In this document: one piece after another, positions 11,733 through 19,203 of the stretch | How positions within the stretch are numbered: the stretch's first letter is position 1 | How the letters are laid out: each line of letters opens with the position of its first letter | Virus genome (UHGV): UHGV-0124605 | Origin: a virus | Direction: 5' to 3' (one strand) | Length of the DNA: 19,203 nucleotides | Translations under genes and position numbers: made by a program | Notes under the pieces: model-generated | Databases searched by the model: none | What the model saw: the letters and a program-made list of their open reading frames with translations, nothing else | What the model was told of the DNA's origin: nothing

Positions 11733-13028
11733 ATGGCTACTTGGCAAGGATCAAATGGCGGATTGTTGGCTGGTATCGGCGGCGTCAACTCAAACGCTCC
11801 GAGCGTAAATGACATCGGCAATACGCTTCAGCTTATCAGGCAGAACAATGATATTGAGCGTTCAGGCGCTAACAATGTTGGGCTGACTGCTTTGCAAGGC
11901 CTTTCAGGTATTGCGGGGGTGTTTCAGCTGGAAAAGCAGGCTCAGCGGCAGAAAGAATTTCAGCAGGCGTACGCTAATGCTTATGCGTCTGGTGATCGCG
12001 GTGCTTTGCGTCAGTTGGCTACTCAATATCCAGACCAGATTGAATCCGTTCGTAAAGGCATGGGATTCATTGATGAAGACCAGCGGAATTCTATCGGCAC
12101 CTTAGCGGCTGGCGCACGCCTTGCGTCATCGTCTCCAGAAGCAATGCAATCATGGCTGCAAAACAACGCCAAGGAACTGACTCGCGTCGGTGTTGACCCT
12201 AACAGCGTTGCTCAGATGTATCAGCAGAATCCTTCAGGATTTGGTGAGTTTGTTGATCACCTTGGAATGGCTGCTCTTGGCCCGATTGACTACTTCAATG
12301 TTCAGGACAAGATGGCTGGTCGTGAAATTGACCGAGGCAGGCTGGCAGAGACAATCCGCAGCAATCAGGCTGGAGAAGCACTAACAGCGCGTGGTCAGGA
12401 CATCCAGATACGTGGACAGAACATCAGCGCACAGAATGCTGCTCTTTCCCGCGAAATACAAAGAGCAGAATTACAAGAAAAGGCTCTGGACAGACAGATA
12501 GCCAGAGAAAGCAATCAGTTAAAGCTTGAAGAGCTAAAACAGAAACAGGCAGATGTTCGGCAAAAGGCTGACATAGCCCGCGCTGACAGGCAGGCCGCCG
12601 CTCAGGGTGCAGTTGATACGTTCAGCACCGCGCTTGATTCTCTCAACGAGATAGAGCAAAGCCCCGGCCTTTCAAAAGCAGTAGGAATTCGCTCAGCGTT
12701 TCCGACAGTTCCTGGCTCTGATGCGGCTAACTTTGAAGCAAGGCTCGACACCTTTAAAGCTCAAACATTCCTTCCTATGGTGCAGTCCCTGAAGGGTATG
12801 GGCGCTCTTTCAGATGCTGAGGGTAAAAAATTATCCGATGCGGTTGGTGCCCTAAGCCCCAAAATGAGTGAAAAGGCTTTTCGTGACTCTATCGGAAAGA
12901 TTAGAAATCAGCTTGAAAGCAAGTTGAGCACTGTTAAAAAACAGTTTGATTATCAGGAGCCAGTACAGAATATGCCAGGGCAACAATCTACTACTGGCAG
13001 TAACTTTTCTTCACTATGGGGTGATTAA
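11733..13028 (+). CDS. 20: Ejection (E) protein gp20-like
   Basis: 431 aa in the syntenic position after gp7, with low-complexity Gln/Ala-rich and coiled-coil content typical of P22-like internal ejection proteins. Stop overlaps the next start. Confidence 0.8.
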   Translation: MATWQGSNGGLLAGIGGVNSNAPSVNDIGNTLQLIRQNNDIERSGANNVGLTALQGLSGIAGVFQLEKQAQRQKEFQQAYANAYASGDRGALRQLATQYPDQIESVRKGMGFIDEDQRNSIGTLAAGARLASSSPEAMQSWLQNNAKELTRVGVDPNSVAQMYQQNPSGFGEFVDHLGMAALGPIDYFNVQDKMAGREIDRGRLAETIRSNQAGEALTARGQDIQIRGQNISAQNAALSREIQRAELQEKALDRQIARESNQLKLEELKQKQADVRQKADIARADRQAAAQGAVDTFSTALDSLNEIEQSPGLSKAVGIRSAFPTVPGSDAANFEARLDTFKAQTFLPMVQSLKGMGALSDAEGKKLSDAVGALSPKMSEKAFRDSIGKIRNQLESKLSTVKKQFDYQEPVQNMPGQQSTTGSNFSSLWGD

Positions 13029-15025
13029 TGGCTAAAGCATGGAAAGATGTTATCGCCTCTCCACAGTATCAGGCGTTAGCACCAGAACAAAAAGCGCAGG
13101 CTCAGGAGCAATACTTCAATGAAGTCGTGGCCCCGCAAGCCGGAGAAAATGCAGAGCAGGCTAAGCAAGCTTTCTATGCTGCCTATCCATTGCCATCTGT
13201 GCAGCCAGTGGAGACACAACAACCAGTAGCACAGCAACAACCACAGCAAAGTGGATTTATGTCTGATCTTGGTGAAGCAGTAAAAGAGACTGGTCGCGGA
13301 CTGGTGCAGGCTGGCGTGAACGTGGCAAACATACCTGCATCAGTTGCCGATGCTGTAACAAGCGCGGCGGCTTGGGCTGGCGGTAAACTCGGTATTGGCG
13401 ATGGTACATATCAACCAGCACCACGAGTAACAACGCAGGGATTAGAGCAGGACTTTGGCCTTCAGCAAGGTGCGCTGACTCCACAAACGACAGAGGGAAG
13501 GGTATTTGCTGAAGCATTGCCTTACCTCACTCCTGCTGGCGTTGAGAGAGCGGCGGTACAGGCACCAACACTTGCTGGTCGAATTGCTCAGGGGGCAACT
13601 CGCCTTCTAGCAGAAAACGCAGTTGGATCACTTGCTGCAAATAGTGCGAAAGATGATGCGGAAGCACTCGCCACCGATTTAGGCGTTGGTGTACTTGCTG
13701 GCGGTGCTATTAACGCTGCCGGACGTGGATTAGGTGCTGCTTATCGTGGCGTTCGTGGTGCTATCGCGCCAGAAGCGCAGCAGGCTATCAGATTTGCAGA
13801 GCGTGAAGGAGTTCCTCTGCACACCACAGACCTGTTACAACCAACTTCCCGCGTCGGAAAAATGGCGCAGACTACAGCAGAAAATATCCCTCTGGCTGGC
13901 ACAAGCGGAATGAGAGCAACGCAACAGGAAGCTAGAAGCCAGTTGGTGCAGAGATTTGCTGATAAATTCGGTGAGTATGATCCAGCGGTTGTTATTGACA
14001 GCCTTAAAGCGAAAACATCAGGAATTCGTCGTGCTGCAGGGAATCGTCTTGAGCAGGTTCAGAATGCAATGGCGGGAGTCAATATCCAGCCTGCGCGAGC
14101 AATTCAGCAGATTGATACTGAGATATCTAATCTGCAGAAGCTTGGTAAGGTAGCTGATAACGAGACAATTTCAAAACTTCAGTCATATCGTGATGAGCTT
14201 GTTCGCAATGCTGGTCCTGATGGTCCGGTAAATCTGGATTTGAAGCAATTAAGCGACCTGCGCAGCCAGTTCAGAATGGACGTGAAGGGTGAGCGACCAG
14301 TGTTACCAAACCGTTCCGATGCTGCCATTCAGCGCGTTTACAAGGCAATGACTGACGATATCAATGGTGCCATTGGTCAGAATCTTGGCAACGATACTCT
14401 CCGTAAATATCAGCAGGCCAATGCCGTCTACGCTGACGAAGCGGCGAAACTAAAGAATACCAGGCTGAAGAATGTTCTCATGAAAGGCGACCTGACGCCG
14501 GAAGTCGTCAACAACATGCTATTCAGCAAGAACAAATCGGAAATTAAGACGCTGTATAACTCAGTTGGTCGTGTTGGCAGGGCGCAAATGCGCAATGGCA
14601 TCATTGGAAAGGCGATGGAGAAATCTGGCGGATCCCCTGACCAGTTCCTTCGGCAGCTTAACATCCTGCAAAACCAGACTGGCATCACATTTAAGGGGCA
14701 GGACGCTGCTTATCTGAAAGGATTAAAAAACTACCTGCAATCCACGCAGCAGGCTGCAAAAGCGGCAGTAACAACACCCACAGGGCAGCAAACTATCCCG
14801 TTCATTATTGGGTATGGGACGGCAATGAACCCGGCGACAACTGGCGCAGCAGTAAGCTACGGACTTCTTACTCGCGCCTATGAGAGCGAGCCATTCAGAA
14901 ATGCAATGCTCCGAATGGCAAACACCCCACGCGGATCAACAGCGTTTGAGAAAGCCATGCAGCAGGCACAAAAGGCAATTAACGCTATGACGCAGGGGGC
15001 TAAGTCTGATGCGTTGTCAGAATAG
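13028..15025 (+). CDS. 16: Ejection (E) protein gp16-like
   Basis: 665 aa in the syntenic position, the last gene of the late structural block before the accessory region. Ala/Gly/Gln-rich as in gp16-type proteins. Confidence 0.8.
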   Translation: MAKAWKDVIASPQYQALAPEQKAQAQEQYFNEVVAPQAGENAEQAKQAFYAAYPLPSVQPVETQQPVAQQQPQQSGFMSDLGEAVKETGRGLVQAGVNVANIPASVADAVTSAAAWAGGKLGIGDGTYQPAPRVTTQGLEQDFGLQQGALTPQTTEGRVFAEALPYLTPAGVERAAVQAPTLAGRIAQGATRLLAENAVGSLAANSAKDDAEALATDLGVGVLAGGAINAAGRGLGAAYRGVRGAIAPEAQQAIRFAEREGVPLHTTDLLQPTSRVGKMAQTTAENIPLAGTSGMRATQQEARSQLVQRFADKFGEYDPAVVIDSLKAKTSGIRRAAGNRLEQVQNAMAGVNIQPARAIQQIDTEISNLQKLGKVADNETISKLQSYRDELVRNAGPDGPVNLDLKQLSDLRSQFRMDVKGERPVLPNRSDAAIQRVYKAMTDDINGAIGQNLGNDTLRKYQQANAVYADEAAKLKNTRLKNVLMKGDLTPEVVNNMLFSKNKSEIKTLYNSVGRVGRAQMRNGIIGKAMEKSGGSPDQFLRQLNILQNQTGITFKGQDAAYLKGLKNYLQSTQQAAKAAVTTPTGQQTIPFIIGYGTAMNPATTGAAVSYGLLTRAYESEPFRNAMLRMANTPRGSTAFEKAMQQAQKAINAMTQGAKSDALSE

Positions 15026-15115
15026 CTTTTCAAATACCAGGAACGTGCAAAAACCAAATATGTAGAACGCGAGGTTTATCGTATCCCTCTGCATAGGCGA
15101 TACCTTTGCTGATTG

Positions 15116-15601
15116 TTATCTGATGTTACTGCTACTGTTGCATGTGACTGTATTTCCAAACCCTGAATTGCAGTTTGTGTAAGTGTCAACTCGTGTTGGA
15201 TAGGGTTGAGTTATAACAGGCTGTCTCGCTTTTTGCTCGATCGCTTGCATTGTGTTTACAGCCTGATAATTCAATAAAGCCTGCTGGAATGCTTGGCTTT
15301 GCGCTATTTGTTGGGCTTGTTCTTGGCTTTGTAGTTGAACATAAAGATTCTGAAGCTCAAGTCTTGCCTGCGCGTCACTTATCTTGCCATCATCGACACC
15401 TTGCCCGAGCATCTTCGCAGCAAGGACATATAACTTAGGTGTTGGTGCTGATGCCATGCGTGAGTCGTTCTTCACGCTAGCATCAAGGCAATTAGCCATA
15501 TCGCTAAGCTTTGGATAGCGTTGTTCGCAATTTGCCTGATAGTCGCTAACCTTTGCACACCCTGCCAGCAGAAGCGGGATAATTAACAGTGATTTTTTCA
15601 T
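15116..15601 (-). CDS. Predicted lipoprotein (161 aa), function unknown; candidate superinfection-exclusion or lysogenic-conversion protein
   Basis: On the - strand, strong RBS AAGGAGAG 7 nt upstream of the ATG at 15601-15599. Signal peptide MKKSLLIIPLLLAGC with lipobox LAG|C. Mature part has two Cys pairs and a Gln-rich helical segment. The ORF-track start at 15631 would place the RBS inside the coding sequence, so I prefer 15601. Confidence 0.7.
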   Translation of the reverse strand: MKKSLLIIPLLLAGCAKVSDYQANCEQRYPKLSDMANCLDASVKNDSRMASAPTPKLYVLAAKMLGQGVDDGKISDAQARLELQNLYVQLQSQEQAQQIAQSQAFQQALLNYQAVNTMQAIEQKARQPVITQPYPTRVDTYTNCNSGFGNTVTCNSSSNIR

Positions 15602-15735
15602 ATGATTAACTCTCCTTATCTTTGCCATCATGGCACTGTTGGGTGTAAATGAGTTATTAACTCAATCGACAATATCTTCACGAAAATACTTTTTATTATT
15701 AAGATCTTTCTGATTCTAACAAAACGTAAAGTAAT

Positions 15736-16155
15736 ATGAAGAGGATTATCGGCGTCGTTGCTGGCGCTATATTGTTATCTGGGTGCGCAACTATTGTTGG
15801 TGACGAAACACAGCTTGTGCAAGTGAACAGCAATCCTTCCGGCGCGAGCTTTAAGGTAAAAGACGAATCAGGCGTGATTGTTGCGCAAGGTAAGACCCCG
15901 CAAGGAGTAACTCTTGCCAAGTCAGATGGTAGTTATTTTGGCAAAAAGAGCTACCAGATCACTATGGAGAAGGATGGGTACGAACCAGTTACCCTGCCAA
16001 TCAAAGCCAATGCTAATGGTTGGTATATTGGTGGAAACCTTGTGTTTGGTGGGTTAATTGGTTGGCTTGCTGTAGATCCATTTAATGGCGGGATGTATAC
16101 CTTGAAGCCTAAAGAGGCAAATGCATCCCTTATACCGTCCACAAAGCAAGACTAG
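15736..16155 (+). CDS. Predicted lipoprotein (139 aa) with PEGA-like beta domain and Gly-rich hydrophobic C-terminal segment, function unknown
   Basis: Signal peptide MKRIIGVVAGAILLSGC with lipobox LSG|C. NSNPSGASFKV...GKTPQGVTL...GYEPV resembles a PEGA-type domain. C-terminal WYIGGNLVFGGLIGWLAVDPFNGGMY is glycine-zipper-like. Followed by a terminator hairpin. Confidence 0.7.
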   Translation: MKRIIGVVAGAILLSGCATIVGDETQLVQVNSNPSGASFKVKDESGVIVAQGKTPQGVTLAKSDGSYFGKKSYQITMEKDGYEPVTLPIKANANGWYIGGNLVFGGLIGWLAVDPFNGGMYTLKPKEANASLIPSTKQD

Positions 16156-16162
16156 TAAATGG

Positions 16163-16186
16163 AACCCACCATCAGGTGGGTTTTTT
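16163..16186 (+). terminator. Rho-independent terminator hairpin between the convergent lipoprotein and mnt genes
   Basis: AACCCACC (16163-16170), loop ATCA, GGTGGGTT (16175-16182), then TTTT. The downstream arm overlaps the last codons and stop of mnt on the opposite strand. Confidence 0.6.
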
Positions 16187-16423
16187 GTACAAATCCTTCA
16201 GCGTATCAAACACCATCTTCTTAACAAGTTCAGACTGCTCATCAGCGATACGTTCCGCATCGTCTCGATAGCCTGAAATTTTGGATGGCTTTGATACAGC
16301 ATCAGTCACTATCTGAACTAATTCTGAATTAAGAGAGCGGCCATTGGATTTGGCTCGCTGTTTTAGTTTTTCCTTTAATTCGTAAGGTAGCCGCAGATTA
16401 AATTGCGGGTCATCTCTTCCCAT
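16172..16423 (-). CDS. mnt: Mnt repressor (ribbon-helix-helix, Arc/MetJ family)
   Basis: 83 aa: MGRDDPQFNLRLPYELKEKLKQRAKSNGRSLNSELVQIVTDAVSKPS...GYRDDAERIADEQSELVKKMVFDTLKDLYKKPT, near-identical to P22 Mnt as recalled, same length. Confidence 0.93.
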   Translation of the reverse strand: MGRDDPQFNLRLPYELKEKLKQRAKSNGRSLNSELVQIVTDAVSKPSKISGYRDDAERIADEQSELVKKMVFDTLKDLYKKPT

Positions 16424-16557: not shown

Positions 16558-19203
16558 ATGACAGACATTACAGCCAATGTTGTAGTGAGCATGCCTTCGC
16601 AACTCTTTACTATGGCCCGCTCTTTTAAAGCCGTAGCTAATGGCAAAATTTATATCGGTAAAATTGACACTGACCCAGTAAATCCTGAAAACCAGATTCA
16701 GGTTTATGTGGAGAATGAAGACGGTTCTCACGTTCCTGTTTCGCAACCTATAATCATTAACGCTGCTGGATATCCGGTATATAACGGACAGATTGCCAAG
16801 TTCGTAACTGTGCAAGGCCATTCTATGGCTGTTTATGATGCGTATGGTGCACAGCAGTTCTATTTTCCTAATGTGCTGAAGTATGACCCGGATCAGTTTA
16901 AACAAAAAGTATTATCAAATGATATGCTAAATATGTCTCCTCTTTATTTTGGAGCTAAGGGGGATGGGATTAGCGATGATACTGAAGCATTTGTCGCGTT
17001 GGAAATGGATATAAAAAATAGGGTTATTGATTTAAGTGGAAGAGCATTTTTTGTTACTAAAAGTTTTATTGAAAATAGCTATATAAATGGTTCTTTTATT
17101 CGTGATGGCAGTAAACGAATTGCGATTGGTGATCTTAAATTAAGAGATAAAAGAGAGCCATTGATATTTTCCGGAATGCCAAAAGTATATAACACCAGAC
17201 ACACGTTGCGCAGAACTGAAGGTGCGGGTGGTTTATATGCGGTCATTCAGGGGTGTTGTTATGATGAAATTAACGACAAGATTTTTACTTTATCATCTAC
17301 CACAGCATACGGTTATTGCATTAATGCCTTTGACGTGACGAATTCTGGTGAACTAGGAAGATACGACAGAACCCGTTCTACTGAACTTGGGCATCAGGGG
17401 CTTGGATTGCATCATAATCCTGATGGTACTGTCGTGCTGTGGACATCGAAGCCTTATGGAACCGATGCCGCCAATCAATGTATTTCGATGGAAAATATAT
17501 TGAGTTACACAGGGACAACCAACGGAGTATCTGAAGGTTTTATCACCTGGAAGTTGTTCCCCTATGATGGAATGAGCGCAAGCTCTACTCCAACTGTATC
17601 AAGTTGTGAAAACTATCTCCTTGCCAAGAAAATTTCATCGGATGGAATTACCTGCACGGTTCGTGTTTTCGACATAGTCAGCATGTGGAATAACAGAGCT
17701 CATAAAACTGATTATAGTGATGATTATTTAGTTGAGTTTAGCTATCAAAAACCATCACAAGAAGCATTTACCCAATCAATTGCTTGCGATGGGGCATACA
17801 TTTACATACTTGAGTCACATACGTATGTTGGCATGACTAATTATATTTACGTATTTGACTTAACAGGCAGGTTTATTGAGCGAGTAGATATTTCAACTGT
17901 TGGTGATGATGAAGCAAAATCTGACAGTACAGGAACTCCTGTTTATAAAGAGCCTGAGTCCCTAACAGTAATTAGAACGGAGAGTGGGTATGTTTTAACG
18001 CTGGGGATATGCACATATAAAGGAGTTGCTGAGAACGGGAAAAATGTATATCTGTTTGATATAGGCAGGTCTGGTTCGGTAGTGCAAAGCAAAGCAAGCC
18101 GTTCTGTATCCAGTAATACTGGTCTTCATAGTTCTGGCTCCCCGGAGTTCAAATATGGAGTAAGGGAGTACAATGATACTTTTCACTGGACAGTTTGGCC
18201 AACAAGAAAGGGTATTCAAACTAACCGGGATAACCCTATATTGTTTCTTGATGGCGGAATTACTGGTGGAATGCAGTTAGCTTCAAACGGCACGGAAGGG
18301 ATGAGCAACTCATGGGTTTCCCGGCATCAGTCAGACACCGCAGAAGGACCAAGAGCAATAATGTATAAGTCTCGCTCTGGTGTTGTATCAACTGATAATT
18401 TTGGAGCTCTGCAGACAGGGGATGTATTGGGTACTCATGTATGGGCCGGTGATACAGGTAGCAAGGCTGTGCAATGCGCACGCATTAAATGCGTCACAAG
18501 AGGTAATCCTTCCGGAGACAATATCCCGGTTGCTTTCTACTTTGGAACCATGGGTGAGAGTGACGGCTTGCGTGACAGATGGGTATTAACAGAATTAGGT
18601 CATTTTCGACCATCAGGTTCAAATATTTATGATATTGGTACACAGTCGAATACTGTCAGAAACCTGTATATAAATAATAGCCCCATTGTAACCAGCGACA
18701 GAAATCACAAGCAGGATGAAGCTTCATTATCTGATGCAGAACTACGGGTTGGAATGGCTATTTACCCGCTGATAAAAAAATTCAGAATGAAGGATGCTGT
18801 AAAAGAAAAAGGCTTGTCAGCGCGTGAGCATATCGGTGTAATTGCGCAAGATATACAATCCATCTTTGAATCTGAGGGGCTTGATGCATTTTCTTATGGG
18901 GTTCTTTGCTATGAAGAGTGGGATGATGAGTATGAGAAAGTCTATGCAACAAGAAATGTGACCAGAAAAATTTTAATTGATGAAGAGTCTGGTCAGTATG
19001 ATGAAATCACAGAGGAAGAAGAGTATGAAACTGGTGAAGTAAGGTTAATTATGGAATCAGGAAGAAAATTATCAGTGCGCTATGACGAGTTAATGTTTCT
19101 GGCAATGAGCGCACTATATCATCACCATGAGCAGGATATTGCCAATATCACATCAAAGATTAATAATCTGGAAAAATTATTAAAGTTAACACTAAATGGT
19201 TGA
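16558..19203 (+). CDS. 9: Tailspike protein, mosaic: P22 gp9-type head-binding domain, uncharacterised central receptor-binding/depolymerase-like domain, endosialidase-type C-terminal intramolecular chaperone (peptidase S74-like)
   Basis: 881 aa. Residues 1-113 match the P22 tailspike head-binding domain from memory ([11 protein letters not shown]...[33 protein letters not shown]...QGHSMA.YDA.G.Q....NVLKYDPDQ). The centre begins with a [13 protein letters not shown] motif. The C-terminus ([11 protein letters not shown]...HIGVIAQDI...[10 protein letters not shown]...) resembles the K1F endosialidase chaperone domain. TGA stop is at the window end. Confidence 0.93.

Follow-up and report, generated by a model that had tools for sequence, protein, structure and literature searches.

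The 19,203-nucleotide (nt) stretch analysed here, viral genome UHGV-0124605 (the window), represents the arm of a P22-like (Lederbergvirus) prophage that carries the virion genes, and it passes through the three ejection-protein genes to reach a tailspike gene. Between the gene-16-type ejection gene and the tailspike gene lies a minus-strand open reading frame (ORF) that encodes a lipoprotein of 161 amino acids (aa), the subject of this work. Its ATG is at position 15601 and its stop codon at 15116-15118; the coordinates, strand and frame assigned to it in a preliminary description were correct. The same 486-nt ORF was called by PGAP in E. coli LR-29-1 and in E. coli O104:H4. A second in-frame ATG upstream, at 15631, is the start picked by the annotators of Gally, a prophage of the Crohn's-associated adherent-invasive E. 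coli (AIEC) strain LF82 (PMC9928086). This upstream ATG has no Shine-Dalgarno sequence, and homologue N-termini as well as the PGAP calls favour the start at 15601, while a valid lipoprotein signal results from either one.

The Shine-Dalgarno sequence of the favoured start, AAGGAGAG, reads as a strong one. Upstream of it, a motif scan of the 134-bp divergent intergenic region gave two overlapping sigma-70-like promoter candidates, TTCATA-16-TAGAAT with TG and TTGTTA-16-AATAAT, a count no higher than in shuffled sequences. Published data for LF82 show transcription of the matching intergenic region and of both genes that flank it. The promoter/terminator scan of the lipoprotein locus found no terminator on the minus strand. 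The features of the locus are collected in Table 1.

Table 1. Features of the lipoprotein gene and its surroundings, in window coordinates.
Feature	Coordinates	Strand	Basis
Coding sequence, lipoprotein precursor, phrog_6067 family	15116..15601	-	translation, phrog_6067 match, dN/dS, PGAP
Signal peptide and lipobox, residues 1-15; C15 predicted lipid-modified Cys	15557..15601	-	sequence; lipobox in 35/35 homologues
N-terminal helical domain (predicted), residues 16-100, C25/C38 pair	15302..15556	-	AF2 model m90355714622a; conservation
Long helix (predicted), residues 76-125, distal part Gln-rich	15227..15376	-	AF2; Gln count
C-terminal Cys hairpin (predicted), residues 141-157, C144...C154	15131..15181	-	AF2, low confidence; family motif
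Shine-Dalgarno sequence AAGGAGAG	15612..15619	-	read from sequence; 10 nt before ATG at 15601
Two overlapping sigma-70-like promoter candidates	15695..15740	-	motif scan of 134-bp divergent intergenic region
Approximate mobile cassette, gene and upstream region	15097..15727	.	mosaic junctions
Gene-16-type injection (ejection) protein, context	13028..15025	+	annotated homologues in Gally, LR-29-1, VSe13
mnt repressor, Arc and Repressor_Mnt domains	16172..16423	-	Pfam 2.8e-22 and 2.2e-18
Tailspike gene (equivalent of P22 gene 9), second border of the slot	16558..19203	+	ORF map, comparison

A prophage cassette in the gene 16-tailspike slot

In all P22-like prophages and phages examined, the lipoprotein gene occupies the same position, between the gene-16-type ejection gene and the tailspike gene and convergent with gene 16. 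These loci comprise Gally, Morganella, Yersinia, Tatumella, a metagenomic contig, Salmonella phage VSe13 and Proteus phage Brookers, as well as E. coli O104:H4, LR-29-1, Salmonella phage MS2 LVA, Providencia and T. morbirosei. According to the ORF maps, mnt and the lipoprotein gene share a strand in 7 of 11 related contexts, with the lipoprotein gene downstream of mnt, either after a gap of ~14-60 nt or with one small secreted or membrane protein gene in between. The order in P22 is 16, sieA, orf59a, mnt, arc, ant and 9, with sieA, orf59a and mnt on the strand opposite to the other four. It is mirrored in O104:H4, where gene 16 is followed by the lipoprotein gene, a gene for a 104-aa secreted protein and mnt, all three on the opposite strand, and then by arc, ant and the tailspike gene.

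The borders of the gene are mosaic. Similarity to Sf6 and IME10 ends at window position 15095-15096, ~20 nt away from the stop codon, that to epsilon34 begins at 15728, and VSe13 shares only 14801-15618 with the window; Gally is 97% identical over the region and 99% identical in the protein. The GC content of this segment is 0.41-0.46 versus ~0.50 in the injection genes, and is equally low over the whole right end of the window. By its mosaic junctions, the lipoprotein gene appears to be a self-contained prophage cassette in the gene 16-tailspike slot.

In P22, this slot holds the superinfection exclusion gene sieA. Of the SieA types A-C (Leavitt et al. 2024, PMC10883804), our comparison was with type A, that of P22. 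BLASTP between it and the lipoprotein gave no alignment at E <= 100, tblastn of P22 SieA was negative in the window and in all loci fetched, and the slots of the loci examined contained no unaccounted gene of SieA size (at least 150 aa). In each of the loci examined, the lipoprotein gene appears in the slot in place of sieA.

The protein matches phrog_6067, a family with function unknown, over its full length (residues 1-161 on profile positions 1-161 of 161, E = 1.7e-109), and a search of 5.8 billion proteins returned 91 homologue clusters, the top one with 871 members, so it is no orphan, as it had been called in the preliminary description. The homologues come from Enterobacterales (Escherichia, Citrobacter, Serratia, Klebsiella, Cronobacter, Pectobacterium, Yersinia, Morganella, Providencia and Tatumella), with 'hypothetical protein' as the name of almost every entry. 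Among 5426 complete E. coli genomes, 186 (~3%) carry the gene, always on the chromosome and including O104:H4 strain C227-11; the sequenced phage isolates with the gene are five Lederbergviruses of Escherichia, Salmonella and Proteus. In comparisons with orthologues of 93-97% nucleotide identity, the ratio of nonsynonymous to synonymous substitution rates (dN/dS) was 0.04-0.11. Judged by its substitution pattern, the lipoprotein gene is real and under purifying selection.

Predicted localisation and architecture of the lipoprotein

The N-terminus of the protein is MKKSLLIIPLLLAG-C15, with two Lys in the n-region, an uncharged h-region and L-A-G-C at residues 12-15. It thereby displays all the hallmarks of a lipoprotein signal, namely a positive n-region, an uncharged h-region, a lipobox of the form [LVI][ASTVI][GAS]C and a Cys within approximately residues 15-35. 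The lipobox is present in all 35 aligned close homologues, where the +2 residue is A, V or T and never Asp, and a strict regular expression recovered it in 108 of 144 distant representatives scanned. The residue following the lipobox Cys decides between outer- and inner-membrane sorting via Lol (the +2 rule). In the 161-aa protein this residue is Ala, and Lol-dependent sorting to the outer membrane, with the protein facing the periplasm, is therefore predicted. The signal peptide is the sole hydrophobic segment, the mature sequence being polar and helical. Following these established rules, the protein would be processed by signal peptidase II and anchored in the outer membrane facing the periplasm, in agreement with its earlier designation as a lipoprotein.

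We obtained structural models with AlphaFold2 (AF2). A first model, from an alignment of 35 sequences, was poor, with a predicted local distance difference test (pLDDT) score of 60, while a second one, built on 108 sequences, was of good quality over the N-terminal two thirds. In this model, residues 15-104 have block-mean pLDDT values of 82-98 and comprise helices at residues 18-28, 32-44 and 53-70, followed by a long helix from residue 76. The N-terminal domain is the most conserved part of the protein, with a mean pairwise identity of 0.68 versus 0.38-0.53 elsewhere. Along the long helix (mature residues 62-111) the pLDDT drops from 97 to ~50 toward the C-terminal end. This helix contains a Gln-rich stretch, with 14 Gln in 42 residues (84-125) versus ~4% expected, whose heptad pattern is weak. 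The model thus retains the Gln-rich helical region reported previously, but the coiled coil suggested for it is not borne out; the region would be better termed a long helical stalk, for which oligomerisation is possible. A Pro/Thr-rich linker connects the stalk to a C-terminal hairpin, modelled at low confidence as two strands (141-146 and 152-157) that carry C144 and C154. Near the C-terminus the family shares the motif T-x-C-x3-G-x4-C.

The five Cys of the protein, at residues 15, 25, 38, 144 and 154, are exactly those kept in 35 of 35 close homologues. In an alignment of 108 family sequences, C25 and C38 are invariant and C154 is at least 90% conserved, while the position of C144 appears in the consensus but is below 90%. 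Two conserved pairs therefore stand behind the paired cysteines of the preliminary description, although their spacing is C-x12-C and C-x9-C and not literally C-x-C. A disulfide between C25 and C38 is plausible because both Cys lie on adjacent helices of the AF2 model, and two disulfides, one in the N-terminal domain (C25-C38) and one in the hairpin (C144-C154), would be a plausible arrangement of the mature protein.

Scans of the 161-aa protein against domain libraries returned no Pfam-A family at E <= 1, no defence family of PADLOC-DB v2 at E <= 1 and nothing meaningful in NCBIfam, and 25 diverse family members likewise had no meaningful Pfam or NCBIfam match. The NCBIfam model GspK was hit at E = 0.0014, with 18 bits versus a cut-off of 130, over the Gln/Ala-rich helix; we rejected this match as compositional, and it explains the misleading database name 'GspK' in Cronobacter. 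A single-sequence search of solved structures (Protein Data Bank, PDB) gave no match, and the same search with the family profile gave coiled-coil segments only, at E >= 0.005. Foldseek against viral predicted structures found nothing below E = 0.59, and the fold-search matches were generic helical bundles without specificity. A structural match to a known family, proposed at the outset as a check on the defence role, did not emerge, since no family, whether of defence or of other function, was matched with confidence in these searches. Searches of the literature by locus tag, protein accession and PHROG number found nothing. The lipoprotein family is thus uncharacterised, with a distinctive architecture and without a Pfam model or detectable structural relatives.

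An exhaustive profile search of 1.84 billion representatives extended the family to 257 clusters at E <= 0.001, most of which are metagenomic lipoproteins of 125-190 aa that share one plan. The lipobox is followed by a head with C-x12-C, a variable middle of low complexity and a C-terminal T-x-C-x3-G-x4-C loop, which mostly ends in Tyr or Arg and is present in 78 of the 108 lipobox-bearing distant relatives (144 scanned). Recurrent head motifs are CE...F..M..CL, KLY.L.A and DAR.ELQ..Y. Profile searches of a word-indexed protein database retrieved no named distant relatives, and a profile scan of genome contigs gave 5 loci only; the named, cultured members of the family are those in P22-like prophages. 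Among the distant members, one lies in an integrase-bearing island and another on a phage-like contig near a small terminase gene. On metagenomic contigs, the 190-aa member P0166 is located directly upstream of a TIR-domain gene and a gene for a large nSTAND/WD40 NTPase (L016 6839-9748 and L017 1350-6956), in a neighbourhood that resembles a defence island. As the contexts of the distant members are mostly islands, phage-like or TIR/STAND-associated, the family is largely accessory and mobile.

Transcription in lysogens and a possible role in superinfection exclusion

In the published tables for LF82, the orthologue of the gene is LF82_138 (GALLYPH_13). Its log2(fpkm+5) values (fpkm, fragments per kilobase per million mapped reads; two replicates) were 6.29 and 5.96 in overnight lysogeny broth (LB), 7.87 and 8.15 in B1 (bacteria only), 8.02 and 8.22 in B6 (bacteria only), 10.29 and 10.30 after 1 h in macrophages and 8.70 and 8.54 after 6 h, the latter corresponding to a log2 fold change of 2.55 versus LB (q = 4.7e-27; PMC9928086). 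Relative to overnight LB, this amounts to a rise of ~18-fold at 1 h in THP-1 macrophages and of ~4-fold in B1 and B6. The three adjoining injection genes remain at 2.3-4.2 (log2), and the divergent neighbour LF82_139, which encodes a second lipoprotein, is co-induced even more strongly, from ~5.5 in LB to 11.0 in macrophages on the log2 scale (PMC9928086). Since the orthologue is expressed while the injection genes are silent, the gene is transcribed in the lysogen independently of the late operon, probably from its own promoter, and more strongly in host-like conditions.

Fitness data for the same strain are available from transposon insertion sequencing (Tn-seq) by the same laboratory (Supplementary Data 4, PMC8149705). 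For LF82_138 the ratios were 0.82 (macrophage/LB), 1.12 (macrophage/library) and 1.38 (LB/library), at a library density of 92. Insertions in the gene are thus abundant and neutral, with no fitness cost, and those in LF82_139 were likewise neutral.

Our favoured reading, which we hold tentatively and rate at somewhat less than an even chance, is that the lipoprotein is an outer-membrane-anchored, periplasm-facing exclusion protein that acts on DNA delivery by incoming P22-like phages. After Sec export, the precursor would be lipidated, cut by signal peptidase II at C15 and delivered by Lol to the inner leaflet of the outer membrane, as its +2 Ala predicts. The mature form would consist of a compact four-helix N-terminal domain whose last helix extends as a ~50-residue Gln-rich stalk, followed by the Pro/Thr linker and the small two-strand hairpin, with domain and hairpin each stapled by a Cys pair. 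From the outer-membrane side of the periplasm it might interfere with the envelope-spanning DNA-delivery conduit formed by gp7, gp20 and gp16, or alternatively with a host envelope partner of this conduit. Its role would then parallel that of SieA, an inner-membrane protein encoded in this position by other P22-like phages.

Circumstantial support for exclusion comes from the slot and orientation shared with sieA, the transcription in the lysogen and the lack of a sieA gene alongside. The mobile-DNA settings of several distant family members also speak for it. This context favours the superinfection exclusion put forward in the preliminary description, whereas nothing points to the receptor blocking of the Llp/Cor type that was offered with it. 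SieA blocks DNA injection, escape mutations map to gp16 and gp20, which are periplasmic and inner-membrane conduit proteins, and SieA is also weakly transcribed in lysogens (PMC10883804). Only 22 of 66 P22-like phages carry sieA (PMC10883804), which leaves room for an alternative in the others, and the lipoprotein gene is a concrete and widespread candidate for exclusion in these roughly two thirds.

The general type is familiar, a moron by which a prophage supplies an outer-membrane lipoprotein, perhaps for exclusion. The likeness to SieA extends from the slot itself (between genes 16 and 9, on the same strand, convergent with gene 16 and often downstream of mnt) to the size (164 aa in SieA, 161 aa in the lipoprotein) and to the carriers, which for both genes are solely P22-like prophages in the same genera of enterobacteria. 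The two proteins differ in that the lipoprotein has no sequence similarity to type A and that SieA is a multi-pass inner-membrane protein with proven exclusion, while exclusion by the lipoprotein is proposed from context. The lipoprotein, whose only hydrophobic segment is the cleavable signal, is expected in the outer membrane, unlike SieA.

Among phage lipoproteins, the helical Ltp of Streptococcus thermophilus phage TP-J34 acts by blocking DNA injection. The title of Bebeacua et al. 2013 reportedly gives Ltp's target as the tape-measure protein. Ltp resembles the 161-aa protein as a prophage lipoprotein involved in superinfection exclusion (PMC3952083); it differs in acting in a Gram-positive host, where it is surface-exposed on the cytoplasmic membrane. 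The Pfam-A scan gave no sequence match to Ltp and no Ltp structure was among the fold matches. By analogy, Ltp and SieA, the latter in the same slot but the other membrane, would be the closest mechanistic precedents.

Cor of phi80, N15 and HK022 and Llp of T5 are small phage-encoded outer-membrane lipoproteins that protect the host cell, and the lipoprotein would resemble them in working from the periplasmic side of the outer membrane. T5 Llp inactivates the receptor FhuA, and Llp and Cor are poorer models because they plug FhuA, whereas P22-like phages adsorb to O-antigen, which leaves receptor plugging with no evident target. Inactivation of FhuA by Cor has been described (PMC11436027). At ~78 aa, these proteins also lack the arrangement of helical domain, stalk and Cys hairpin; the lipoprotein is, as noted before, about twice as long as Cor (161 versus 78 aa, the length of the Cor profile) and unrelated to it. 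The PHROG Cor family (phrog_1119) matched residues 1-29 only, the signal peptide, at E = 0.08, and NCBIfam Cor (NF047972) gave no match at E <= 1. The PHROG scan, which included no search aimed at T5 Llp, returned no family besides phrog_6067 at a meaningful E-value.

Several observations weigh against exclusion. The searches that we ran found no similarity to known exclusion proteins, in sequence or in fold. Sharing of the slot may reflect a recombination hot spot only, and the slot also receives unrelated cargo, namely mnt/arc/ant, a Rap1a homologue of the type VI secretion system (T6SS) immunity kind and a PEGA-like lipoprotein. The low dN/dS, an average over the whole gene, gives no sign of an arms race, and the strong induction in macrophages fits a role in host interaction or stress equally well. 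One distant member is surrounded by ordinary chromosomal genes, namely uvrC, a uracil-DNA glycosylase gene and earP. Finally, LF82_138 was not scored as a moron by the authors of the LF82 study: its value in LB was 70, 4.5-fold above the prophage median of 15.6, and thus just under their 5-fold cut-off of 78, so that they concluded that Gally has no morons (PMC9928086).

The expression data lend themselves to a second explanation, in which the gene is a host-fitness or envelope-stress moron in the manner of lambda Bor/Iss that strengthens or modifies the envelope under acid, antimicrobial peptides or complement and has nothing to do with phages. Its rise of ~4-fold in B1 and B6 and ~18-fold after 1 h in macrophages, with a log2 fold change of 2.55 at 6 h, would fit such a role, as would the co-induction of the divergent second lipoprotein gene and the frequency of the prophage in pathogenic lineages such as AIEC LF82 and O104:H4. 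Bor, too, is a prophage-encoded outer-membrane lipoprotein expressed in lysogens, and the Bor lipoprotein of another LF82 prophage was likewise induced in cell-culture medium (PMC9928086). The function of Bor is serum resistance. However, the Tn-seq of LF82_138 (PMC8149705) shows no fitness role in macrophages, and the absence of any Pfam-A family at E <= 1 means that the protein has no Bor-type domain. Such a moron would also leave unexplained why the gene is so strictly tied in position to mnt and the injection genes, and we consider it unlikely, though not negligible. The Gally mnt gene is itself up 40-fold in macrophages, and its deletion was without effect on survival (PMC9928086).

The adjacency of a Rap1a homologue to the lipoprotein gene in Tatumella raises a third explanation, an immunity-type protein whose helical domain neutralises a periplasm-acting toxin of competitors, such as a T6SS peptidoglycan-hydrolase effector or a bacteriocin. 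However, no cognate effector gene lies nearby, the 161-aa protein has no immunity match in PADLOC or NCBIfam, its fold matches are unspecific helical bundles, and the companion proteins in O104:H4 and L012 are not Rap1a by Pfam. We regard this explanation as improbable.

A role in the phage's own lytic cycle, for example conditioning the envelope for release or sparing progeny DNA from delivery into lysing cells or debris, is slightly more improbable still. T5 Llp probably protects progeny in the latter way. The gene stands at the end of the virion/injection block and adjoins gene 16, and an upregulation of P22 sieA upon induction has been reported (PMC10883804). However, the gene and the late operon lie on opposite strands, the gene is transcribed at a time when late genes are silent, and many functional P22-like phages, for instance Sf6, do not have it. 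An o-spanin or lysis role was rejected on position, size and expression in the lysogen.

Exclusion at the level of DNA delivery remains our preferred reading of the lipoprotein, and a broader form of it, possible but held with less confidence, would make this protein the founding member of a new exclusion class. Here a stalked lipoprotein tethered to the outer membrane would jam gp7/gp20/gp16 from that side with its head and hairpin, as an alternative to SieA in P22-like prophages without sieA, and the wider family would serve as a general envelope guard borne by mobile elements. If exclusion from the outer-membrane side is true, it would open a second and independent way to study the assembly of the gp7/gp20/gp16 conduit across the envelope, with relevance to phage therapy and to phage-typing host ranges. 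If it is not, the strong induction in macrophages together with the neighbouring lipoprotein makes the gene a candidate for lysogenic conversion that fell just short of the 5-fold threshold of the LF82 study. In both cases, an unannotated lipoprotein family of distinctive architecture, without a Pfam model, has been defined.

Neighbouring genes and other cargo of the slot

Divergent from the 161-aa lipoprotein gene, at window position 15736-16155 on the plus strand, lies the gene of the second lipoprotein, of 139 aa and with the lipobox LSGC. Its C-terminal segment is Gly-rich and hydrophobic, and it has a weak PEGA-domain match (E = 0.0037). The protein is a full-length match to phrog_6823 and the homologue of epsilon34 gene 15. 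The two lipoproteins occur independently, as epsilon34 has the 139-aa protein alone and O104:H4 and VSe13 are without it. Beyond this gene, the window has mnt without arc or ant, a remnant immunity-I region.

In the Tatumella terrea prophage (L011 6604-6942), the gene between mnt and the lipoprotein gene encodes the Rap1a-family homologue, a T6SS amidase-immunity protein by its domain (PF18602, E = 1.1e-13). Other small secreted or membrane proteins encoded between mnt and the lipoprotein gene have 104 aa in O104:H4, 122 aa in MS2 LVA and 153 aa in Providencia. The mnt-distal part of the slot looks like a hot spot for envelope-directed cargo.

On the other side of the lipoprotein gene, a small same-strand gene overlaps or abuts its stop codon in T. 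morbirosei and a related metagenomic contig (L009 and L012; ~3166-3504 in L012). It was called as 112 aa, with an 87-aa ORF that starts with MHPVIQ and has a strongly hydrophobic N-terminus, and is without a Pfam match. This suggests a two-gene unit in the T. morbirosei/metagenomic branch.

The 665-aa gene-16-type protein of the window is named 'lytic transglycosylase domain-containing' by PGAP in LR-29-1 and also in the VSe13 record, while Pfam found no SLT or P22_gp16 domain in it at E <= 1. Its counterpart in Tatumella (885 aa) has both SLT and Phage_P22_gp16. A link between the lipoprotein and a transglycosylase-type gp16 was dropped because the gp16 proteins found with the lipoprotein fall into several unrelated types.

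At the other border of the slot, the tailspike (16600-19203) has a GC content of 0.35-0.47 and a strongly positive GC skew, compared with ~0.50 GC in the injection genes, and it is unlike the tailspikes of Gally and LR-29-1, prophages that are otherwise nearly identical. This divergence and composition are consistent with a recent swap of the receptor-binding module.

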